Shown piece by piece: positions 11,712-62,173 of a stretch of DNA of 64,000 bases. Origin of the DNA: an uncultured Kiritimatiellota bacterium (GTDB lineage Bacteria > Verrucomicrobiota > Kiritimatiellia > RFP12 > UBA1067); assembly GCA_934635045.1 (NCBI GenBank), contig CAKTZA010000009.1, positions 4,738 to 68,737 of the forward strand, read 5' to 3'. The notes under the pieces are model-generated. The model worked only from the letters and a program-made list of their open reading frames with translations, made no database searches and was not told the DNA's origin. The position numbers and the translations under genes were made by a program. Numbering within the stretch: the stretch's first letter is position 1; each line of letters begins with the position of its first letter.

Positions 11712-11720
11712 ATTATACCA
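11712..11720 (-). promoter_or_regulatory. Extended -10 box TGGTATAAT, 7 nt upstream of the exonuclease ATG
   Basis: Minus strand: TGTGGTATAATtccgcccATG. Confidence 0.55.
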
Positions 11721-11737
11721 CATTATCGGCACTTTGG

Positions 11738-11758
11738 GGCCTGTCCCCGCGACAGGCC
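11738..11758 (-). terminator. 8-bp GC-rich hairpin (GGCCTGTC/GACAGGCC) after the antiporter gene, no U-tract
   Basis: ggcctgtc-cccgc-gacaggcc lies 47 nt past the stop at 11805 and just upstream of the next -10 box. Confidence 0.35.
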
Positions 11759-11804
11759 GCCTCACGCAGACAACGCCACCGCGCCGAGGCGCGCGGCAGG
11801 GCGC

Positions 11805-18511: not shown

Positions 18512-19510
18512 CTACCGCTTGCGCGCGCGCCGCTTGAAGAGCGCACGCACGGCGTCGATGTACGGACGGTCGGTCGCGATCGGCAGCGTCTCGATGCCCG
18601 TCTTGAGGAAGAACCGCCGCAAGTCCTCGGTCTCGGACGCGGCGCGCGCGGTAAACGCACGGCGCACCTTCGCGCTGGACGTATCCACGAGGACGAGCGC
18701 CCCCGTCTCGGGGTCTTCGAGCTCCACAAGCCCCACGTCGGGCAGCGCGCTTTCCGCCGGATCGCACACGGGCACGCAGATGAGGTCGTGATGCCGCGCC
18801 GCCGCACGCAGGAGCCGCTCGGCAGAAGAACGGGCGTCCGCACTTTCCCCTTCCGCGCCCTTTCCTTCTTCCTTCTTCCCTCTTCCTTCTTCCTTCTTCC
18901 CTCTTCCTTCTCCCTTTTGCCCTCCCTTCTTCCTTTTCCCTTCTGGCATGAGGAAGTCGCTCACGAGAAAGACGACGGCGCGGCGCTTCTGGACGCCGTT
19001 CAGGAACTTGAGCGCGCCCTCGATGTCCGTGCCGCCCTGCGCGTCGTCCTCGGCGGCCAGCACCTCACGCACGAGGCGCATGACCGAGTCGCGGCCCTTG
19101 CGCGGCGGGATGTACTTGACGATCCGGTCGGAGAAGAGGACGAGGCCGATCTTGTCCTGGTTGCGGATCGCCGTCAGCGCGAGTAGCGCCGTCACCTCGG
19201 CGGCGAGCTCCATCTTCGAGCGGCGGACGCTACCGTAGCCCTGCGAGCCGGAGACGTCCACGAGAAAGAGGATCGTCAGCTCGCGCTCCTCGGCGAAGCG
19301 CTTGATGTACGGCACGCCCGTCTTCGCCGTCACGTTCCAGTCGATCGTGCGCACGTCGTCCCCGACCTGGTAGGGGCGCACCTCGTCGAATTCGACGCCC
19401 TGTCCCTTGAAGGTCGAGTGGTAGTCGCCCGCAAGCTGGTCGTCGATCAGCTTGTTGGTGAGGATCCGTATCTTCCCCACCTTCGCCATCAGTTCCTTTA
19501 CGTCAGTCAT
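18512..19510 (-). CDS. DUF58 (VWA-like) protein, usual MoxR partner, with in-frame KKEEG low-complexity insertion
   Basis: YHSTFKGQGVEFDEVRPYQVGDDVRTIDWNVTAKTG...LFLVDVSGS is the DUF58 signature. The insertion PEGKRKKGGQKGEGRGKKEEGRGKKEEGKGAEGE is encoded by the pyrimidine run 18845-18945. Confidence 0.8.
   Translation of the reverse strand: MTDVKELMAKVGKIRILTNKLIDDQLAGDYHSTFKGQGVEFDEVRPYQVGDDVRTIDWNVTAKTGVPYIKRFAEERELTILFLVDVSGSQGYGSVRRSKMELAAEVTALLALTAIRNQDKIGLVLFSDRIVKYIPPRKGRDSVMRLVREVLAAEDDAQGGTDIEGALKFLNGVQKRRAVVFLVSDFLMPEGKRKKGGQKGEGRGKKEEGRGKKEEGKGAEGESADARSSAERLLRAAARHHDLICVPVCDPAESALPDVGLVELEDPETGALVLVDTSSAKVRRAFTARAASETEDLRRFFLKTGIETLPIATDRPYIDAVRALFKRRARKR
18845..18945. repeat. 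Pyrimidine (CTTCCTTCTTCCCT) run in the DUF58 gene
   Basis: Encodes GKKEEGRGKKEEG on the minus strand. Confidence 0.85.
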
Positions 19511-30626: not shown

Positions 30627-33600
30627 TCACCAATCTCCTTTCATTACTTCCTTCTTTCGCCGAAGCCCTAACCATGACTTGAAGTATATATACTTTTCAC
30701 CTTTCTCAATTGCACAGGCATTCCAGGCCTTGTTGTCAGCATTGGCCTTCATCCACGCATCCGTGTCACCCAGCGCCGCGCGGTTCGCTATCCACGACCG
30801 GATGATTCTCGTCGGGGCCCCACCCTTGTCACCCGGAGCCTTGTAAGCGTAGCCCAGCAAGGTCTGCGGACCAACCTGTTCCCATACTTTTCCCGGCGAA
30901 ACAAAATGCGAAGCGTTCTTGAAATTGATGTCCAGCACCGAACACCCTGCAAGAATCGCGCAGTCAAGGTCCCTACCCCAGCATCCTTGCAACATGGACG
31001 GCTTGAGCCCTCCCTGAAGGGCGTTGGTGTCATGATTGCCATGCCCCGAGAAGTAGAACACGTCCGCTTGGTTCATAATCTGACGCATAGGACTTTGCAC
31101 ACCGCCATACGCGACCGACACGACCTCACATCCCGCCGCCTTGAAGAAAGACTTTGACCGGGCACTGACTGGCGGGGATGCCTCTAAATCCACGGTGGAG
31201 GCCTCGGTCGCTTTCCCTCGAAAAGCATAGCCCAGTTCCGAGAACGCCTCGCTGTCCGAAAGGTCCTGAACCTCCGTCGTCGGAACGTCGATCCACGCCA
31301 TCTCGTCCACGCCGTCCTCGTCCTGCGACGGCAGAAGCCCCAGCTCGACCAGCTGCGCGCGCGTCCGGGACATGCGGATCTCGGAATTCGTGCCGCCGCT
31401 GAAGAACTCGGACGCCGCAATGGGGATCGCGACGCCTGTCGGGCAGGTTCCCGACGTCGACACCACGACGTTGCTTCCCATCACGCGCCGGAAGAGGTCG
31501 AAGTCCGCGAGGACCGGCGTGACCGCCACCCGAATCCGAAGCGCCTCGTCGTCGAGCAGTACGCGCGACGCCGCGAGTTCGGACCATGCCTCGTCGTCCG
31601 GGGCGCAGACCGTGACTTCGCACCGGTAGACATGTAGCGTCGCCTCCAGCCCCTCGGCCACGTTGCCACCCCTGCCCTCGCGCATATGGATGTGCGACGT
31701 CAGGAGGCCGTCGGCGTTCTCCGCCATCCAGCCGAGTCCGCAGACGACCTCGTTTCCAGGAAGCCGCGCCGCCTTGTAGCTTTCGTAGGACGGCGCAGTC
31801 GGCAGGCCGTTCACCTTCGCCTGCCAGCAGTACCAGTCCGGGTCCGTGTGTCCGTCGGAGTTCAGCCACTGCATCGTGAGGCGGTAGGAGTTCCCCTTCT
31901 TCAGGATTCTCAGCCTCTCCGATCCCGCCCCCGGAGACGCCATCGAGAACGTGTCCGACAGGCGGTCGAGCGGGCCGAGTCCGGCAACCGTCATGCTCCA
32001 GGCGGCGTAGTCGCCGTTGATGTCAAACCGCATCCCTCGGTCCGGGAACTTCGCCGAAGGCTTCCCGCCATCGGCGGCGTCTGCCGGATCGGAGCCGTTA
32101 CAGATCTCCTGGATGTCCGAGACGCCGTCGCCGTCCGTGTCCGACGCACGGGGGTCTGTTCCCAGGGCCCGTTCGTCCGCATTGCAGAGGCCGTCGCCGT
32201 CTGCGTCGCCGGACGCGCCGTTCTCGCCGGATGCGTCCAGCGGGTCAAGCCCCTGCGCCACCTCCCAGCCGTCAGGCAGCCCGTCACCGTCCGAATCCGT
32301 CGACAGCGGATTCGTGCCACGGCCAACCTCCTCGCCATCCTTCAGGCCATCGCCATCCGTGTCGGGATTGGTCGGGCTTGTTCCGCGAGCATTCACCTCT
32401 TGCCCGTCCGAAAGCCCGTCCCCGTCCGTGTCGGGGTTTCTCGGATCAGTGCCCCGCTGCTGCTCCTGGAGGTTCGTCAGCCCGTCACCGTCCGGATCCG
32501 CGCCCGCCCCGTCGCCGCCGGCCGACACGAGCGGATCGAGGCCGTTGGCAACTTCCCAGCCGTCCTGCAGTCCGTCGCCGTCCGTGTCCCTCGACAGGGG
32601 ATTCGTGCCAAGGCCCATCTCCACATCGTCATCGAGGCCGTCGCCGTCCGTGTCGGCGCTGGTCGGCAAGGTGCCAAGGCCGACCTCGGCACCATCGTCC
32701 AGGCCATCGCCATCCGTGTCGGCGCGAAGCGGATCCGTCCCGTGCCCCAGATGGTACTCGACCGTCGTCCGCGGCAGGATCGGCCCGCGCGCGGCGAAGT
32801 CCCACGTCAGGTTGTAGAGCCCGTCCGGCGTGACGATGCGCCTGACCTGCACGCCGACGACGGCTTCCGACCCGTCAAGCCAGACGTCGGACGCAAGGTA
32901 GCTCACGCGCACGACGGATCCCGTCCCGCCGGGGACGATGACCTGGTAGGTCATCCGACGGTCGTCGGACGTCCCACGCAGCCTCACGTTGCGGTACTCG
33001 ACGACGAAACAGCCGTTGCTCTCGACGATCCCCGTCCGCATGTACGACGCGGCGTCGCCGTCGACCAGCGCCGTGCTGCACCAGTAAGGCGCAACCAGGA
33101 TGTCGCCCATGCTGTAGGTCCCCCTGTCCAGCGGCGTCGCGAGTTCGGGGAAGACAAGAGCAACGTTCGATCCGGGCGCATTCAGGTACATGACCCCGTT
33201 GTCGAAGCACACCGCCTTCGACATCAGGCTGCCAAGGACCGTCAGGCCGTCAGGCAGCGAAGCGATCGCTAACGCCCCCCAGTAGCTGTGCAGGCCACCT
33301 CCGTACGAGGTGCCGCCGACCGTCGCCCAGCCCGTCGTGTCGTACCACTCGAAAGCGTCCGCCCTGACGATGCACCCCGTCTCGGTGCCGTCCGCAAGCC
33401 CGTCCCCGTCCGTGTCGGCGACCAGGGGGTCTGTCCCCAGGGCGAGTTCGTCACCGTCTGGCAATCCGTCCCCGTCCGTGTCGGGGTTCGCGGGGCCTGT
33501 CCCCAGCGTCCACGCCTCATAGGCGTCCGAGAGGCCGTCGCCGTCCGAGTCGTCCTGCGTGGCGAGCCGGAAGAACGCCGCGCGTTCCATCGCGTTCGTC

Positions 33601-52575: not shown

Positions 52576-54786
52576 TTAGGCGTCCTGAACCTCGCCCATG
52601 AGTTCTTTGAACGTGCCATCGCTCGGCATCCGCCAGTCGGCGCGCGGCGAAAGCGAAAGCGTGATCTTCGGGCCGTCGGGAACGCAGTTGCGCTTGTACT
52701 GCGCGGCGAAGAACCGCCGCAGGAACGTCGCGCACGTGCGCGCGATCGTCTCGCGGTCGTAGACGCCGCGAAAGGCGACTTCCGCCAACGTCCGCAACTT
52801 TTCGGACTCAGCCCCGTTCGCGAGAAAATGATAGAGGAAGAAGTCATGCAGCTCGTAGGGCCCCAGCCGCGCCTCCGAATCGTTCGCCGCCGCGTCCGGC
52901 ACGAGTTCCGGCGTGATGGGCGCGTCCGCAATCTCGCGCAGCAGCGGGCCCAGCGGCGCGGACGACTGCGCGGCCACGGCACGAAGTGCCGCGAGCACCA
53001 TTGTCTTCGGCACGGAGGCATTGACCTGATACATGCTCATGTGGTCGCCGTTGTAGGTGTTCCAGCCGAGGGCGATTTCCGAGAGGTCGCCCGTTCCGAC
53101 GACGAGCGCGCCCGCCATGTTCGCGATGTCCATCAGGACCTGCGTCCGCTCGCGCGCCTGCACGTTCTCGAACGCAAGGTCGTGCGTCTGCCCGTCGTGG
53201 CCGATGTCCGCCAAGTGCTGACGGCACACCGCGCAGATGTCCACGACGCGCACCACGGCGCCAACGGCCTGCGCAAGCGCAACGGCGCGCCGCTGCGTCC
53301 TCTCCGACGACGCAAACCCCGGCATGACGACGGCAATCAGCCCCTCTCTCGTGGGGACAGACCCCACTGACTTGGGGACAGACCCCGGCAAATTCGCAGA
53401 ATCCGTGGGGACAGACCCCGACAAACTGGCGAAATCCGTGGGGACAGACCCCGCCTTCAGCCGCGCGACGGCCCGCGCAGCGGCAAGGAGCGCGAGCGCC
53501 GAATCCGCACCGCCGGAAACGCCAATGACCAATTTCTGGGCATGCGCGGCCTCGAGGCGCCGCGCCAGCGCAACGGCCTGAATCGTCAGCAACTTCTCGA
53601 CCCACCCCGGCTCGCCAAATTCCGTCAGGAACGGATGTGGATCTATAAAATCATTCAAAATTTCATTTGAACCTTCACTTTTCGCACACTTCTCAGAATT
53701 TCCCTTGGGGTCTGTCCCCAAATCTACGGGGTCTGTCCCCTGACTCATTGTCCCCTGGCTCATGGGGTCTGTCCCCACCTTCAAATCCCCCTCCGTGTCT
53801 CCGTGCCTCCGTGTGAGACCTTCATTCCAAGTCGACTCAGTGCAATCACACACAATCAACCTCGTGGGGACAGACCCCAGCCCCACGCCGCCCATCTCGT
53901 TCAACGACGTCTCGGCGCGCCGCCGATAGGCCAACGCCGCGAAATCAACTGTCGCTGCGACGACTTCTGATTCTTTTGCGAACAAACTTCCCTTTTTCAG
54001 CAATTTACCGTCAACTGCGATGAGGGACTGTCCCCCGAAAACGGCATCGGACGACGATTCGCCCACGCCCGCCGAAGCCAGCGCATAGACGCACCGCAAC
54101 GCGGCGCTTTGGCTCAGGACGCGCAGCTCGCGATGTGCGGCCTTGCCCAGAAACTCAGTGCTCGCCGAAAGGTTGAAGACGCAGTCGAGCCCCGCAGACG
54201 CCAAGCGCGCACTCGGCGGAATCGGCACCCACAGGTCTTCGCAGATTTCAATCGAAAACTTGATGTTTTTGAACGAAAAGACGAGATTTGTCGCAAACGG
54301 CACGGGGCCTGTCCCCAGCCAGTCGGGGGCTGTCCCCACGTTTGAAGAACGTGAATCGGTGGGGTCTGTCCCCACGGGGGGCAGGGCGGTGGATGAGGTG
54401 AACTGGCGGTGCTCGTAATACTCGCCGTAGGTCGGCAGGTAGGTCTTGGGGACAGACCCCCGGATGCGTCCGCCGGAGAGAACGACCGCCGTGTTGAAGA
54501 GGCCCGCGCCGACCTTCAGCGGTACGCCGACGATCAGCGCGAGCGGCAGGTCGGCCGTCTGCGCCGCGAGATCCCGCAGCGCCTGCCGCGCCGCATCCAG
54601 CACGTCGTCGCGAAAGAACAGGTCGCCGCACGTGTAGCCCGTGAGCGACAGTTCGGGGAACGCCAAGACGGCGACGCCCTGCGCCGCCGCCGCGCGCGCC
54701 ACCTTCAGATGCTCAACCGCATTCGACGCCGGATCCCCAAGATGGAGTTCCGGCGTCGCCACGGCGATTCGGTCAATGCCTTTCAC
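52576..54786 (-). CDS. nadE: Glutamine-dependent NAD+ synthetase with three in-frame repeat-derived insertions
   Basis: CN-hydrolase part (AFPELSLTGY, EICEDLW) and synthetase part (IGVSGGADSALAL PP-loop). GTG start. Insertions rich in GSVPT/GTDP. Confidence 0.85.
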   Translation of the reverse strand: MKGIDRIAVATPELHLGDPASNAVEHLKVARAAAAQGVAVLAFPELSLTGYTCGDLFFRDDVLDAARQALRDLAAQTADLPLALIVGVPLKVGAGLFNTAVVLSGGRIRGSVPKTYLPTYGEYYEHRQFTSSTALPPVGTDPTDSRSSNVGTAPDWLGTGPVPFATNLVFSFKNIKFSIEICEDLWVPIPPSARLASAGLDCVFNLSASTEFLGKAAHRELRVLSQSAALRCVYALASAGVGESSSDAVFGGQSLIAVDGKLLKKGSLFAKESEVVAATVDFAALAYRRRAETSLNEMGGVGLGSVPTRLIVCDCTESTWNEGLTRRHGDTEGDLKVGTDPMSQGTMSQGTDPVDLGTDPKGNSEKCAKSEGSNEILNDFIDPHPFLTEFGEPGWVEKLLTIQAVALARRLEAAHAQKLVIGVSGGADSALALLAAARAVARLKAGSVPTDFASLSGSVPTDSANLPGSVPKSVGSVPTREGLIAVVMPGFASSERTQRRAVALAQAVGAVVRVVDICAVCRQHLADIGHDGQTHDLAFENVQARERTQVLMDIANMAGALVVGTGDLSEIALGWNTYNGDHMSMYQVNASVPKTMVLAALRAVAAQSSAPLGPLLREIADAPITPELVPDAAANDSEARLGPYELHDFFLYHFLANGAESEKLRTLAEVAFRGVYDRETIARTCATFLRRFFAAQYKRNCVPDGPKITLSLSPRADWRMPSDGTFKELMGEVQDA
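53353..53452. repeat. Four tandem GGGGACAGACCCC units (irregular 21-33-nt spacing) inside nadE
   Basis: Exact 13-mers at 53353, 53374, 53407 and 53440; encode GSVPT(D/R/K)... repeats. Confidence 0.9.
53645..53878. repeat. Composite insertion in the nadE inter-domain linker: AT-rich stretch, 3x GGGGTCTGTCCCC, inverted R fragment, 1x GGGGACAGACCCC
   Basis: 13-mers at 53707, 53728, 53764 and 53866. ccctccgtgtctccgtgcctccgtgtgagacc is the reverse complement of the R-repeat core. Confidence 0.85.
54304..54460. repeat. Third nadE cluster of the 13-mer (one exact copy plus two variants) and an exact copy in conserved coding sequence
   Basis: ggggcctgtcccc at 54304, ggggctgtcccc at ~54326, ggggtctgtcccc at 54361, ggggacagacccc at 54448 (encodes the conserved GSVPK). 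Confidence 0.8.
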
Positions 54787-57091: not shown

Positions 57092-57149
57092 TGCCCCTTC
57101 CTTTTTGCTTCTTCCTTTTTACTTCTTCCTTTTTACTTTTTCCCTTGCC
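57092..57149. repeat. Three tandem ~14-nt units (GTAAAAAGGAAGAA on the mRNA strand) in the glnK-amtB spacer
   Basis: Minus strand: AGTAAAAAGGAAGAAGTAAAAAGGAAGAAGCAAAAAGGAAGGGGCAATG. Confidence 0.8.
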
Positions 57150-57677: not shown

Positions 57678-59381
57678 TCACTTAAGCGAACGCGCCGCAG
57701 GGGCCGCTTGCTTCCGCATCTTCAGCGCCGCCGCGACGAGTCCGTCGAAGAGCGGATGCGGCGCGGTCGGACGCGACTTGAACTCGGGGTGGAACTGCCC
57801 CGCGATGAAATACGGATGATTCGGCAACTCGACGATCTCGACAAGCGCGCCGTCCGGCGACGTGCCGGAAACGACCAGCCCCGCCGCCTCCAGCGCCTTG
57901 CGCCCCTCCGTGTCGTAGCCGAGCTCGTAGCGGTGGCGATGGCGTTCGGAAATCGTGAAATCGGCCTTGCCCTTCTCGCCATAGGCGGGCGCGTAGAGCT
58001 TCGCCGCGAGCGTCCCCTTCTTCACGACGCACGGATACGCGCCGAGGCGCATCGTGCCGCCCTTCTGCGTGACGCCCTTCTGCGTCTCCATGAGGTCGAT
58101 CACCGGGTGCGTCGTCTTCGGATCGAACTCCGTCGAGTTCGCGTCCGACCAGCCGACGACATCGCGCGCGTACTCGATCGCCGTACACTGCATGCCGAGG
58201 CAGATGCCGAGGAACGGGATCTTGTGTTCGCGCGCATACTTGATCGCGAGGCACTTGCCCGGCACGCCGCGGCTGCCGAAGCCGCCCGGCACGAGGATGC
58301 CGTTCACGCCCGCGAGCAGTTTGCAGTCCGCACTTTTTCCCTCTTCCTTGTTCTTTTTTACTTCCGCTTCCAGCTCCTCCGCCTCAATGCACTTCACGTT
58401 CACCTTGCAGTCATGCGCCATGCCCGCGTGGTGCAGCGCCTCGTGGACGGACTTGTAGGCGTCGCGGATCGCGATGTACTTGCCGACGAGCGCAATCGTG
58501 CAGCTCTTCTTCGGCTGCGTCGCCTTCTTGACGAGCGTGTCCCACACCGTGTGCTTGATCGGCCAGATGTCGAGGTGCAGCTGCTTCAGCACCTCCTCGT
58601 CCAGTCCCTGCTTGCGCAGCTCGCGCGGAATCGCGTAGACGGAGTCCGTCACGTCCTTCTCCTCGATGACGCGCTCGGGGCGGACGTTGCAGAAGAGCGC
58701 GAGCTTTTCGAGGTGCTCCTTCGGAATCGTCATCTCCGTGCGGCAGACGAGGATGTCGGGGATGATGCCGATCGCGCGGAGCTGCCCGACGGAATGCTGC
58801 GAGGGCTTCGTCTTCAGCTCGCCCGCCGCCTTCAGGTAGGGGACGAGCGTCAGGTGCACGAAGCACGTGTTGTCCATGCCGTGCTCGAAGCGAAACTGCC
58901 GCGCCGCCTCCAGGAACGGCAGCGACTCGATGTCGCCCGACACGCCGCCGATCTCGCAGAGGACGATGTCGCAGTCATGCTCGCCGGCGGACCTGATCGC
59001 GTCCTTGATCTCGTTCGTGATGTGCGGCACGACCTGCACCGTGCCGCCGAGGTAGCCGCCCGCACGCTCGCGGGCGAGGACGGCCGAGTAGATGCGGCCC
59101 GACGTGTAGTTCGACGCCTTCGAGCAGGTCACGCCCGCAAAGCGCTCGTAGTGGCCGAGGTCGAGATCCGTCTCGGCGCCGTCGTCCGTCACGAACACCT
59201 CGCCGTGCTGGTAGGGGCTCATCGTGCCGGGGTCGACGTTCAGGTACGGGTCGAGCTTCTGCATGAACACCTTGTAGCCGCGGCTCTTCAGGAGAAGCGC
59301 GAGGGACGCGCTCGTGATGCCCTTGCCGAGGGAACTCACGACGCCGCCGGTGATGAAGACGTATTTGACAGGTTTTTTCAT
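57678..59381 (-). CDS. pyrG: CTP synthase
   Basis: KYVFITGGVVSSLGKGI, GATase GICLGMQ. Small KKNKEEGK insertion. ATGA overlap with carA. Confidence 0.9.
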   Translation of the reverse strand: MKKPVKYVFITGGVVSSLGKGITSASLALLLKSRGYKVFMQKLDPYLNVDPGTMSPYQHGEVFVTDDGAETDLDLGHYERFAGVTCSKASNYTSGRIYSAVLARERAGGYLGGTVQVVPHITNEIKDAIRSAGEHDCDIVLCEIGGVSGDIESLPFLEAARQFRFEHGMDNTCFVHLTLVPYLKAAGELKTKPSQHSVGQLRAIGIIPDILVCRTEMTIPKEHLEKLALFCNVRPERVIEEKDVTDSVYAIPRELRKQGLDEEVLKQLHLDIWPIKHTVWDTLVKKATQPKKSCTIALVGKYIAIRDAYKSVHEALHHAGMAHDCKVNVKCIEAEELEAEVKKNKEEGKSADCKLLAGVNGILVPGGFGSRGVPGKCLAIKYAREHKIPFLGICLGMQCTAIEYARDVVGWSDANSTEFDPKTTHPVIDLMETQKGVTQKGGTMRLGAYPCVVKKGTLAAKLYAPAYGEKGKADFTISERHRHRYELGYDTEGRKALEAAGLVVSGTSPDGALVEIVELPNHPYFIAGQFHPEFKSRPTAPHPLFDGLVAAALKMRKQAAPAARSLK

Positions 59382-60661
59382 TTTGAAATCATCTTTCTAA
59401 ATTGGTCAAAGAGATAGGCCGAGTCGTGCGGGCCAGGGCAGGATTCGGGGTGGTACTGCACCGAGAACGCCAGAAGCGTCTTGTGCCGCACACCCTCGAT
59501 GGAGCCGTCGTTGAGGTTCACGTGCGTCACGTCCAGGCAGTCAGGCACCGAGTCGGGCAGCACCGCGAAATTGTGGTTCTGGCTCGTGATCTCGACCTTG
59601 CCCGTCGCGAGGTTCTTGACCGGGTGATTGCAGCCGTGATGGCCGAACTTGAGCCGCCCCGTCTTCGCCCCGCAGGCGAGCGACAGGAGCTGATGGCCGA
59701 GGCAGATGCCGAAGACCGGCACACGTCCCAAAATCGCCTTGATGTTCGCGATCGCGTAGCCGACGGCCGCCGGATCGGCCGGGCCGTTCGAGAGAAAAAC
59801 GCCGTCCGGCTTCAGCGCCAGCACGTCCGCCGCCGGCGTCTGCGCCGGCACGACCGTGACGCGCGCGAACGCCGCGAGCGACCGCAGGATGTTCGTCTTC
59901 ACGCCGAAGTCGTAGCAAACGACATGGAGAGATGGAAGAGGTGAGAAGGAAGAAGGAAGAAGTGTGGAATCGTCAGTTTCTTCTCTGTCTTGACAACACG
60001 ACGAAGACGCCTCGGCAACCAAACTTTTTCCTTTTTCCTTTTTCCTTCTTCCTTCTACATCAACCTCATACGCCTCTTTGCAGCTTACGCGGCTGGCGTA
60101 GTCCTGCCCGTCCAGACCCTCCCACGCCCGCGCCTTCTCGACAAGGAAAGAGGCATTGTCCTCACTTTCTTCTTCCTTCTTCCTTTTTCCTTCTTCCTTC
60201 TTCCTGCCCCCTTCCTCCTCGACGTGCAGCCACGCCTTCTGGTTGCCGTGTTCCCGCAGGTGGATCGTCAGCGCGCGCGTGTCGACGCCATAGATGCCCG
60301 GCACGCCGTTCGCCTTGAGGTAGGCGTCCAGCGACTGCGTCGCGCGATAATTCGACGGCTCGGTGAGGTCGCCGATCACGAGCCCCGAAAGAAAAAGGCC
60401 CCGGGACTCGACGTCCTCGGGGTTGACACCGTAGTTGCCGACTTCGGCGGCGGTGAGGGTGACGAACTGCCCCGCGTAGGAGGGATCCGTCAGGATTTCC
60501 TGATACCCGCACATGCCGGTGTTGAAGACGACTTCCCCGCACCGATCCGCGCGCGCGCCAAACGCCACGCCGTGAAAGACCGTCCCGTCGGCCAACGCCA
60601 GAAACGCCTTCCGTTCCCGCTCGGTCCGCCATTTCGCTTCAAATTCGTTTTGCATAGTCAT
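59378..60661 (-). CDS. carA: Carbamoyl-phosphate synthase small (glutaminase) subunit with an in-frame low-complexity insertion spanning ~295 nt between the two domains
   Basis: VVFNTGMCGYQEILTDPSYAGQ and GICLGHQLL...HGCNHPV motifs. Start ATG 60661 or 60655 behind GGAGCGGAGA. Insertion 59926-60220. Confidence 0.85.
   Translation of the reverse strand: MTMQNEFEAKWRTERERKAFLALADGTVFHGVAFGARADRCGEVVFNTGMCGYQEILTDPSYAGQFVTLTAAEVGNYGVNPEDVESRGLFLSGLVIGDLTEPSNYRATQSLDAYLKANGVPGIYGVDTRALTIHLREHGNQKAWLHVEEEGGRKKEEGKRKKEEESEDNASFLVEKARAWEGLDGQDYASRVSCKEAYEVDVEGRRKKEKGKSLVAEASSSCCQDREETDDSTLLPSSFSPLPSLHVVCYDFGVKTNILRSLAAFARVTVVPAQTPAADVLALKPDGVFLSNGPADPAAVGYAIANIKAILGRVPVFGICLGHQLLSLACGAKTGRLKFGHHGCNHPVKNLATGKVEITSQNHNFAVLPDSVPDCLDVTHVNLNDGSIEGVRHKTLLAFSVQYHPESCPGPHDSAYLFDQFRKMISK
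59926..60220. repeat. carA insertion built from purine-run and pyrimidine-run arms (partly inverted)
   Basis: agaaggaagaagg (59944-59956) is the exact complement of ccttcttccttct (60044-60056). A further CTTCCTTCTTCC run lies at 60164-60220. Confidence 0.8.
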
Positions 60662-60680
60662 CTCCGCTCCAGAATTCGTT

Positions 60681-60696
60681 TGCAAGACAAATGCCA
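60681..60696 (-). promoter_or_regulatory. Sigma-54-like (-24/-12) element TGGCATTTGTCTTGCA upstream of carA-pyrG
   Basis: GG and GC dinucleotides sit at canonical spacing, with two mismatches to TGGCACG-N4-TTGCA. The element ends 19 nt upstream of ATG 60661. Confidence 0.45.
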
Positions 60697-60793
60697 ACGC
60701 CCTTCAAACCGCGCGTTTCGTGTCGTTTGCCCGCATTCATCGATGACCACAAGGCTCTCATGGTCAATCGAATGTAAAGTACGCCTTTTCTCA

Positions 60794-62173
60794 TTACAGG
60801 ACATGGAAACGCGCATCTGACGACACAGACAAAAGTTCGGACGGATCGCGCCGCGTCGCCAGCCAAGGGTAGGCGCCGAGCTCGACAAGCGCCTCACCCG
60901 CCAGAAAAAGAGAGCCGCAAATCAAAACCGTGGGGACAGACCCCAAAGTGGTGGGGTCTGTCCCCACATGCGCAGCGGCGGAAGCGGCGGCAATCGCCTC
61001 CGCCAAAGAGGCGCATGGCGTGGCCTCCAGCCCCACAGCCCGCATCCGTGCGGCCAGTTCCGTCGCCGCAAGCGAGCGTGGGTTGCTTGTCCACACGGCG
61101 TAGGCACGCGCCACAAACGGCGAAAGGATCCGCAGAACCTCATCGACATCCTTGTCGCCGCAGGCACCGAAAACCAGGTTGAGCGCGTGCGGCGCATCCG
61201 AACCGAGAAGCTGCGCCAATGACGCCGCAAGCGCCTGTGCCGCCGGCGGGTTGTGCGCACCGTCGACGAGAAACGAGCCAACGCGCTGAAACCGCCCCGG
61301 CCAGACGACGCGGGAGAAGGAAGAGGGTGCTGGGAACGGGGAACGGGGAACAGGGAACGGGGAACGGGGGGCGGTGGACGGGGAACGGGGGGCGAGGACT
61401 TTCAGCGCGGCGAGGGCCGTGACGGCATTCTCGCGGTTGAAGGCGCCCAGCAAAGGAAAATCGGACGGGATTTCCGACTCATCCGCCCATTCGGGCGCAT
61501 AATGGAACGGCGCGTTCCTCTCGACGGCGACGCGGCGCACGACCTCGACGACAGCTGGCGCGTTCCGACCCAAGACGACCGGCACGCCGGGCTTGATGAT
61601 GCCCGCCTTCTCCCATGCGATCTGCTCGACCGCATGCCCCAGCCAGTCGCAGTGGTCGAGGCCGATCTTCGTGATGACGCACAGTTCCGGCTCGCAGACG
61701 TTCGTCGCGTCCAGCCGTCCGCCGAGCCCACATTCGAGAACCGCATGCGAGACCCTTTTCTCGGCAAAGAGCAGAAAGGCGACGGCCGTCAGGGCCTCGA
61801 AGAACGTCAGGCCGTCCGCCGCCGGACACGCCTCGGCCGCTTCCTGGACTTTTCGCGCCAGCCGTTCCAGCGTCTCGTCGTCGACTGGCTCGCCATTCAG
61901 GAAGAACCGCTCGTTCAGCCGGACGAGGTGCGGCGAGGTATAGCGGCCCACGCCGCCTGTCGGCCCCCTTTCGCCGCCCGCGCCCAGCGCCGCGTCGATC
62001 AGCGCGCAGACCGCGCCCTTGCCATTCGTGCCGGCAACGTGAATCGACTTGAACTGCCGCTGCGGATGGCCCAACGTCCGGCAGAGATCCGAAATCGTCT
62101 CCAGACCCGGCTTCATGCCAAACCGTCGCCGCGCGGCCAATGCCGAAAGAAACGACTGTGCCATCTGCGTCAC
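60794..62173 (-). CDS. folC: Bifunctional folylpolyglutamate synthase/dihydrofolate synthase with two repeat-derived insertions
   Basis: IHVAGTNGKGAV P-loop, WPGRFQ box. Start GTG 62173 or ATG 62164. Insertions PRSPFPVPRSPFP and VGTDPTTLGSVPT. Confidence 0.8.
   Translation of the reverse strand: MTQMAQSFLSALAARRRFGMKPGLETISDLCRTLGHPQRQFKSIHVAGTNGKGAVCALIDAALGAGGERGPTGGVGRYTSPHLVRLNERFFLNGEPVDDETLERLARKVQEAAEACPAADGLTFFEALTAVAFLLFAEKRVSHAVLECGLGGRLDATNVCEPELCVITKIGLDHCDWLGHAVEQIAWEKAGIIKPGVPVVLGRNAPAVVEVVRRVAVERNAPFHYAPEWADESEIPSDFPLLGAFNRENAVTALAALKVLAPRSPSTAPRSPFPVPRSPFPAPSSFSRVVWPGRFQRVGSFLVDGAHNPPAAQALAASLAQLLGSDAPHALNLVFGACGDKDVDEVLRILSPFVARAYAVWTSNPRSLAATELAARMRAVGLEATPCASLAEAIAAASAAAHVGTDPTTLGSVPTVLICGSLFLAGEALVELGAYPWLATRRDPSELLSVSSDARFHVL
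60929..60967. repeat. Inverted pair of the 13-mer inside folC
   Basis: cgtggggacagaccccaaagtggtggggtctgtccccac. Confidence 0.9.
61332..61392 (+). repeat. Extended GGGAACGGGG repeat (more than 8 G-runs) in folC
   Basis: gggaacggggaacggggaacagggaacggggaacggggggcggtggacggggaacgggggg. Confidence 0.85.

Follow-up and report, generated by a model that had tools for sequence, protein, structure and literature searches.

A 13-nucleotide hairpin-forming sequence, GGGGACAGACCCC, recurs within nadE, encoding glutamine-dependent NAD+ synthetase, and within folC of an uncultured Kiritimatiellota bacterium of the gut. It is probably a miniature REP-like (repetitive extragenic palindromic) hairpin of Y1 HUH transposases, that is, of IS200-like enzymes of the RAYT (REP-associated tyrosine transposase) or TIRYT type, which would have been seeded in the two genes and then turned over locally. 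The DNA studied is a 64-kb stretch of contig CAKTZA010000009.1 (in the following, the window), to which statements on the organism's own genome are limited; L-numbers are labels of loci from other genomes. Interest in the case derives from the copy density in an essential enzyme, from the turnover seen at strain level, and from the exact conservation of the 13-nt hairpin across phyla.

The 13 exact copies of the original prediction were confirmed by direct count, in position as well as in strand. None would be expected, and none appeared in 100 dinucleotide-preserving shuffles of the window, which served as the null model; with up to two mismatches, 22 sites are found versus 2.3 expected. Ten of the exact copies, not eleven as had been counted, are located in nadE (at 53353, 53374, 53407, 53440, 53707, 53728, 53764, 53866, 54361, and 54448), two in folC, and one in an open reading frame (ORF) coding for TSP3 repeats. 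As predicted, the reading is G-T-D-P or G-S-V-P in all 12 nadE/folC copies and in the TSP3 copy as well. The codons involved are uncommon in this DNA; among the Thr codons, 7.6% are ACA, and among those for Ser, 6.2% are TCT, while GGG accounts for 21.5% of the Gly codons and CCC for 23% of the Pro codons. By codon usage alone, GGG-ACA-GAC-CCC would encode GTDP with a probability of about 0.003, yet exactly these codons are used in 12 of 12 nadE/folC copies; codon usage therefore fails as an explanation and was rejected on these statistics. Despite the rare codons, there is no synonymous difference among these copies. The 12 copies in nadE and folC are therefore taken to be a DNA-level repeat.

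The 13-mer is also found outside this genome, both in tandem arrays and as scattered copies, most of which are intergenic. When one genome per species was scanned for pairs of 13-mers spaced 5-35 nt apart, at least 118 loci (a lower bound) from more than 10 bacterial phyla were obtained, versus 7 for a control hairpin with permuted loop, GGGGAGACACCCC. Among the matches listed are Treponema, Coriobacteriia, Planctomycetes (Stieleria, Rhodopirellula, Phycisphaera), Kiritimatiellia, Verrucomicrobia, Lentisphaerae, Actinobacteria, Acidobacteria, Oxalobacteraceae, Gammaproteobacteria, Bacillus/Niallia, Clostridia, and a Kaiserbacteria metagenome-assembled genome (MAG). In 587 kb of unrelated nadE loci, no copy was found. 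Viral contigs of IMG/VR contained no array of either the 13-mer or the permuted control; therefore, the element is not phage-borne. Throughout the motif loci, the core is exact, while the spacers resemble the surrounding DNA in base composition and vary from lineage to lineage. On the same strand, 13-mers are most often 21 nt apart (61 pairs in 20 loci), and many spacings are not divisible by three. The flanks lengthen the stem lineage by lineage, for example with AAAT...ATTT in Oxalobacteraceae and AGA...TCT in Treponema; a conserved tetranucleotide (GTAG or CGTC) is present neither in the flanks of 225 copies nor in those of the window copies. In-frame arrays also occur in other genes, including an E2 lipoyl linker, an ABC ATPase, and a gene resembling aminoacyl-tRNA synthetases (aaRS), where they are read as GTDP, GSVP, GLSP, or GDRP. 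In the full-text literature, the 13-mer and its core of 11 nt matched unrelated primers only, and no paper in the searched corpus prints the sequence.

Two of these loci deserve separate mention. In Phycisphaera sp. RhM (L155, 1-640), an array of 12 units with a 21-nt period begins approximately 320 nt past the 3' end of a 16S rRNA gene and, therefore, lies inside or beside the rRNA operon spacer. In L099 (7561-7801), eleven 13-mers with a 21/24-nt period are read in frame as RGLSP...; the flanking sequence of the host ORF is of the class II aaRS type (EpmA/lysyl-tRNA synthetase-like) as judged by eye, without a domain search. This contig has a GC content of 71% but is labelled Muribaculaceae, so that it is probably mis-binned.

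The affiliation of the hairpin with a transposase was seen upon all-against-all clustering of the ORFs that neighbour the arrays. The third cluster is one family in four phyla, all four members of which match Pfam Y1_Tnp (IS200-like transposase; E 1e-12 to 1e-17), and the 13-mer flanks these genes, abuts them, or lies near (L132, ~470 nt). Overall, Y1_Tnp ORFs (E 1e-8 to 1e-17) with the motif beside, flanking, or close are found in L086, L113, L132, L160, L164, L188, L197, and L153, and more distant homologues stand beside it in L115 and L152; tblastn combined with Pfam had added L164, L188, L197, L153, L115, and L152, bringing the number of motif loci with a Y1 gene to 10 of the 118 listed. 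The best NCBIfam match of the transposase is REP_Tyr_transpos, the REP-associated tyrosine transposase, with 51-69 bits (below the cut-off of 80); transpos_IS200 scores 20-25 bits (below the cut-off of 55), while Pfam Y1_Tnp is matched. For a C-terminal helix-turn-helix (HTH), L197 gives weak HTH_23/HTH_38 matches (E 3e-4, below cut-off), and the other transposases have no Pfam HTH match.

The association is also seen in the Kiritimatiellia MAG JBMNOD01 (L213-L233), which contains at least 20 copies of a 347-amino acid Y1 gene. Compared with one another, these copies are similar from precisely GGGGTCTGTCCCC onwards, about 100 nt ahead of the start codon, and a second 13-mer in the same orientation usually follows ~1.3 kb downstream; 19 of 20 copies are flanked by the 13-mer. 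When reference genomes were searched with the Kiritimatiellia transposase as query, the MAG closest to the window was not among the matches. Because the copies are 82-100% identical and many of them are found at contig ends, the element behaves as an active multi-copy insertion sequence (IS) and not as a single-copy domesticated RAYT. The association of the hairpin with Y1 genes is shown in these other genomes, and the 13-mer is a conserved hairpin of a cross-phylum family of Y1 (IS200-like/RAYT-like) transposases. A Y1 gene was also found in two of the seven control-motif loci. With regard to arrays of the control GGGGAGACACCCC, a Y1_Tnp-like gene is adjacent in L204 and lies ~2 kb off in L202, which suggests that these are sister hairpin-transposase pairs with different loops.

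In the window, the main carrier of the repeat is nadE (52576-54786, minus strand), which with all its inserts is an intact ORF of 736 amino acids containing the Pfam domains CN_hydrolase and NAD_synthase; the product matches Mycobacterium tuberculosis NadE (3dla) with E=3e-106. Several independent assemblies of gut metagenomes contain, on 10 contigs in all, a gene for the identical protein, and the repeats are therefore no assembly artefact. Relative to M. tuberculosis NadE, there are three extra segments, namely a glutaminase-domain loop (amino acids ~136-160), the linker region (~288-400), and a loop following the SGGxDS helix (~442-480). The last of these accommodates array R3 (53353-53452, plus strand), consisting of four exact 13-mers at spacings of 21, 33, and 33 nt, which in the gene strand read GSVPTDFASLSGSVPTDSANLPGSVPKSVGSVPT (amino acids ~446-479) at a position where the M. 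tuberculosis enzyme has a 5-residue loop. Between the two 33-nt units of R3, there are differences at 5 of 20 spacer positions and at 0 of 13 positions of the 13-mer; for the two 20-nt spacers, no other copy that might be their source is present in the window at up to three mismatches. The inter-domain linker, which is ~50 amino acids longer than in M. tuberculosis NadE, contains array R2b (53707-53776, minus strand), made up of three exact 13-mers at spacings of 21 and 36 nt (VGTDPMSQGTMSQGTDPVDLGTDPK), and, at its start, the single copy R2a (53866-53878, plus strand; LGSVPT). Array R1 in the glutaminase-domain loop (54304-54373, minus strand; VGTDP..VGTAP..LGTGP) combines one exact copy with two one-mismatch copies, at 54304 and 54325; both had been predicted as degenerate copies, the latter at ~54326. 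The ACAGG variant seen at 54304 is also present at 11736-11748, 29214, and 33492, and it alternates with the exact motif in the relative L206. Finally, copy R0 (54448-54460, plus strand) lies within the conserved core RGSVPKTYLPTY, the Lys of which we take to be the catalytic lysine of the nitrilase-type triad, from the alignment to M. tuberculosis NadE and general knowledge of the family.

The segments carrying the repeats are predicted to be disordered loops or linkers. An AlphaFold2 model of NadE, which is of moderate confidence (mean pLDDT 63, shallow alignment) with well-predicted catalytic domains, displays low-confidence coil segments at residues 117-160, 290-305, 316-383, and 447-479 that coincide with the inserts; pLDDT is below 50 for the linker residues 316-383 and for residues 447-479 of R3. 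Three further low-confidence segments of the model carry no repeats.

Alternatively, GSVP/GTDP might be a linker peptide under selection, with the identity at the DNA level being a by-product. The identical phase in 12 of 12 copies would fit this, as would the predominance of the GTDP/GSVP phase in the genic arrays of L081, L089, L106, L128, L125, L173, and L186. Selection on a peptide would, however, hardly preserve rare codons free of synonymous differences; moreover, other phases are used elsewhere (GLSP eleven times in the aaRS-like gene of L099, GDRP in Stieleria), many arrays are intergenic or are spaced by numbers of nucleotides not divisible by three, and the segments concerned are predicted to be disordered. 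A protein-level origin is, consequently, considered highly improbable, and selfish DNA tolerated by the proteins is a better description of the element than a functional protein motif.

That the extra nadE segments are insertions, as had been proposed, is borne out by comparison with orthologues. In an alignment of 16 NadE homologues, Kiritimatiellia orthologues of ~600 amino acids, which are 59-67% identical to the window protein, lack all three segments, and so does M. tuberculosis NadE; distant orthologues, which were checked for the same peptide segments, do not share them. From this alignment, the segments are lineage-specific insertions. In closer relatives, whose proteins measure 632 to 772 amino acids, GTDP/GTGP/GSVP units are present in differing numbers, and their spacers are unrelated. 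At the R3 site, the four copies of the window correspond to one copy in L110, to two exact copies plus two of GGGGCCTGTCCCC in L206, and to none in L208. Variation in unit number, which had been anticipated between strains, is thus found there and between species as well. The 99%-identical strain L247 differs from the window by 26 substitutions over the 2211 nt of nadE, and the sole indel is one 21-nt unit, which is extra in array R1 of L247; in the same array, ggggacaggcccc of the window corresponds to an exact copy in L247.

Sequence comparison also reveals near-matches that have been turned into exact copies. At the core site R0, the window has the exact GGGGTCTGTCCCC, whereas the ~70-80% identical relative L208 has GGGGGCCGTCCCC (GAVPK), a two-base change, and L247 has GGGGGCTGTCCCC (GAVPK). 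Likewise, the R2a site is the near-match GGGGGCTGTCCCC (GAVPS) in L208 and the exact GGGGTCTGTCCCC in the window. The comparison thus shows whole units gained or lost and near-matches made exact in nadE. The suggestion that the expansion was seeded by native GSVPK codons is not supported, because L247 and L208 have GAVPK at the core site; the window core is a near-match made exact rather than the source.

In 22-kb loci of relatives, every 13-mer copy is situated in nadE or folC and none in the flanks. This bears on the earlier suggestion of an uptake or recombination signal, which may be extended to a Chi-like or any other genome-wide signal. The 13-mer is indeed a short and exact oligomer in excess of expectation, with inverted pairs in some places; but 12 of the 13 window copies are clumped in two genes, the other ~60 kb contain none apart from the codon coincidence in the TSP3 gene, and the even density of ~1 per kb typical of uptake sequences is not seen. 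Both orientations occur within one gene, and tandem arrays are formed. A signal function is hardly credible on these grounds.

A host-beneficial cis element would be another option, with the hairpin either binding a host factor or, as a DNA or RNA structure, tuning nadE and folC through expression, mRNA stability, or translation pausing. Perfect conservation of the 13-mer next to diverging spacers would be in line with such a role, and in Treponema, T-runs come after some of the copies between convergent genes; for REPs of other systems, functions in termination and mRNA stability have been put forward (PMC3733652). Against this, copy number and position vary freely among close relatives, with the R3 array missing in L208, and the genes that carry the motif in other phyla have no function in common. 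At the gathering threshold, Rfam matched only a 16S fragment in ten array loci, so that no RNA family was recognized in them, and a strand-specific G-U signal is lacking, since G-U versus A-C pairs in the flanks exhibit no asymmetry beyond that of shuffled controls. A cis-acting function for the host is, therefore, judged unlikely.

Returning to a hairpin of Y1 transposases, the following scenario can be envisaged. By analogy to Escherichia coli TnpA-REP and to IS200/IS605, the Y1 transposase would recognize the folded hairpin on single-stranded DNA and would cut and rejoin beside it. Non-autonomous copies would have been seeded into nadE and folC in the ancestor of this Kiritimatiellia clade, presumably by such an enzyme. 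From then on, as the comparison of relatives shows, the copies have multiplied and turned over locally, units composed of the hairpin plus 8-23 nt having been gained or lost, nearby near-matches having become exact, and old copies having degenerated to GTGP, GTAP, or GPVP; these local changes are probably due to replication slippage and to template switching from one hairpin to another. As both genes are essential, an insertion would survive only if it were free of stop codons, a multiple of three in length, and placed in a loop or linker, and this filter would account for GTDP/GSVP peptides in disordered segments. The transposase gene may sit elsewhere in the genome or may have been lost, in which case slippage may by now be all that shapes the arrays.

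Several observations weigh against this scenario. Neither the 64-kb window nor the 22-kb loci of close relatives contain a Y1 transposase gene, and across loci the motif does not keep one orientation with respect to the transposase gene. Instead of being dispersed, the copies of this lineage stay within nadE and folC, for which reason local slippage fits better than ongoing transposition. Furthermore, the copies at six independent sites are all in the same reading phase (p~0.004 if random), which is not predicted by transposition; an origin from pre-existing G-x-V-P codons, as seen at R0 and R2a in L208, or selection for small polar linker peptides would be plausible reasons.

Some of these points would equally fit a home-grown minisatellite, in which a chance hairpin-prone nadE sequence was expanded by slippage and quasi-palindrome template switching, its identity with the Y1-associated repeat being coincidental. 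Besides the confinement to nadE and folC and the missing transposase gene, this explanation could claim that the strain-level difference is a single unit indel and that near-matches turn exact next to an inverted partner. It leaves unexplained, however, why the same exact 13-mer recurs in at least 118 loci across phyla, compared with 7 for the permuted control, and why it marks Y1 transposase genes, those of Kiritimatiellia included; in addition, a second gene 7 kb away, folC, has an inverted pair, and the codons used are rare. It is, therefore, deemed quite unlikely. At the other extreme, all enzymes of subclass 2.1, the group of Y1 transposases to which TIRYT proteins belong, could recognize the 13-nt hairpin as a universal module, with the enzyme itself building arrays of hairpin plus variable spacer, in a preferred unit of 21 nt, by repeated strand transfer even within essential genes, and with spacers being captured or newly made. 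This is put forward as a minor possibility; if true, it would represent a general source, across phyla, of new disordered loops in proteins, and the spacers would not be diverged duplicates.

The second host gene of the preferred, transposase-derived hairpin is folC (60794-62173, minus strand; Pfam Mur_ligase domains). Its two copies, at 60932 and 60953, constitute an inverted pair, HVGTDPTTLGSVPT (60932-60965, both orientations), reminiscent of a REPIN doublet. As single-stranded DNA, this doublet is predicted to fold into a 16-bp stem (-20.5 kcal/mol, z=-6.8), in agreement with the inverted doublets of REP/REPIN-RAYT systems. The short single-stranded hairpin of these systems is likewise found, the 17-mer GTGGGGACAGACCCCAC having a predicted folding energy of -5.8 kcal/mol; this longer perfect hairpin, ascribed to the longer versions in the original prediction, is present at only 3 of the 13 copies. 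The exact copy in the TSP3-repeat protein gene (33426-33438, minus strand; Pfam TSP3_bac, 8 repeats) is probably a coincidence with a native GTDP of the TSP3 repeat and no inserted element; the four GTDP motifs of that protein use four different codon sets.

Among known systems, the closest resemblance is to the repeats of TIRYT genes ('TIRtrons'). In Di Nocera 2013 (PMC3733652), these RAYT-like genes are described as being flanked by repeats that share GGGGWSAS and occur as singles, dimers, and clusters; according to Quentin 2018 (PMC6006769), TIRYT correspond to subclass 2.1 of the Y1 HUH proteins, are present in 14.9% of strains, and have the flanking consensus GGGG[AT][CG]A[CG]. The first eight bases of the present repeat, GGGGACAG, read GGGG-A-C-A-G and fit both consensus sequences. 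Further features in common with TIRYT are the position of the repeat beside Y1_Tnp genes in other genomes, the wide phyletic spread, and the organization as singles, dimers, and clusters. Different are the unit, which is here a 13-nt mini-hairpin only, and its intragenic, in-frame location with no transposase gene within the window; neither the exact cross-phylum invariance of the 13-mer nor the 21-nt array period is stated in the accessible portions of these papers.

With the REP/REPIN-RAYT systems of Proteobacteria (TnpA-REP), the element shares short hairpins, inverted doublets (the folC pair), clusters, occasional residence in ORFs, and a Y1 transposase relative as best NCBIfam match. It differs in that neither GTAG nor CGTC tags the 13-mer, the scores of the proteins do not reach the REP_Tyr_transpos cut-off, the gene is multi-copy and IS-like in JBMNOD01 rather than single-copy and domesticated, and the core is conserved across phyla rather than co-evolving lineage by lineage. 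The predominantly extragenic, high-copy occurrence of REPs is not seen in the window, where all exact copies are intragenic and clustered, but it is seen in Treponema L113 (6 of 7 copies intergenic) and in Coriobacteriia L118 (12 copies in 8 kb, mostly intergenic). IS200/IS605 elements have in common a Y1 HUH transposase and a hairpin at the element end, as in JBMNOD01, where the 13-mer forms the left end and a second one lies ~1.3 kb downstream; in contrast, the present proteins are below the IS200 equivalog cut-off, and most hairpins are solitary or in gene-less arrays. Since there is no GTAG tag and the enzymes are below both cut-offs, the repeat was filed under TIRYT/subclass 2.1 and not under classical REP-RAYT. 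Rickettsia palindromic elements (RPE) and mitochondrial GC clusters are selfish palindromic DNA residing in frame in essential genes, where they add surface peptides. They resemble the 13-mer in being selfish palindromes in frame in essential protein genes; RPE, however, measure 100-150 bp, are restricted to one lineage, and are unrelated in sequence, and we know of no transposase for them.

The 13-mer is, accordingly, a REP-like hairpin repeat of the known TIRYT-type family and an unusually dense case of it. The proposal of a REP-like palindromic element in frame within coding sequence holds. Its qualification as unusual does not, as REPs within ORFs, including clusters encoding 43-82 amino acids, are already described (PMC3733652).

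This is a REP-type selfish element within the reading frames of two essential enzymes; nadE contains 12 of its units, of which one adjoins the catalytic lysine, and the strain-to-strain turnover of its units offers a natural experiment in mobile DNA that creates and remodels protein loops and linkers. For annotators, it implies that low-complexity GTDP/GSVP inserts in conserved proteins can be repeat-derived. An invariant 13-nt hairpin that is tied to the poorly studied TIRYT/subclass 2.1 Y1 transposases over more than 10 phyla also provides a defined substrate for biochemical tests; E. coli TnpA-REP is able to process folded single-stranded REPs in vitro (PMC8266576).

Other candidates were considered and set aside. 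A CRISPR array was rejected because of the 13-nt repeat (versus 23-47 nt), the spacers of 8-23 nt with a dominant 21-nt period, and the location within an intact ORF, no search for cas genes having been made. Transcription factor sites were rejected along with the CRISPR, uptake-signal, and codon-usage explanations, on the grounds of spacing, distribution, and codon statistics, and the inverted-repeat start of the Tn3 family, GGGGTCTG..., was dropped once the Y1 link had been found.

The window contains additional repeats. The degenerate copy placed at 11740-11752 in the original prediction is actually a one-mismatch copy, GGGGACAGGCCCC, at 11736-11748, and it is part of a different, intergenic palindrome, GGCCTGTC-CCCGC-GACAGGCC (11720-11760), which is located between two minus-strand genes and looks like a terminator. 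In folC, an in-frame heptamer array, (GGGAACG)n, with ~8 copies and a 21-nt super-period (61325-61398, minus strand) encodes PRSPSTAPRSPFPVPRSPFPAP; it is a different repeat from the 13-mer pair of that gene. A carA-like ORF (59378-60697, minus strand), coding for the small subunit of carbamoyl-phosphate synthase, contains two purine-rich heptamer arrays in frame (60010-60235), which on the plus strand read (CTTCCTT)n and (CTTTTTC)n and encode EEEGGRKKEEGKRKKEEESED and EGRRKKEKGKS. Similar heptamer arrays are found at 18858-18944 and 57097-57143, and on account of their occurrence at several sites of the window they represent a second dispersed repeat family.

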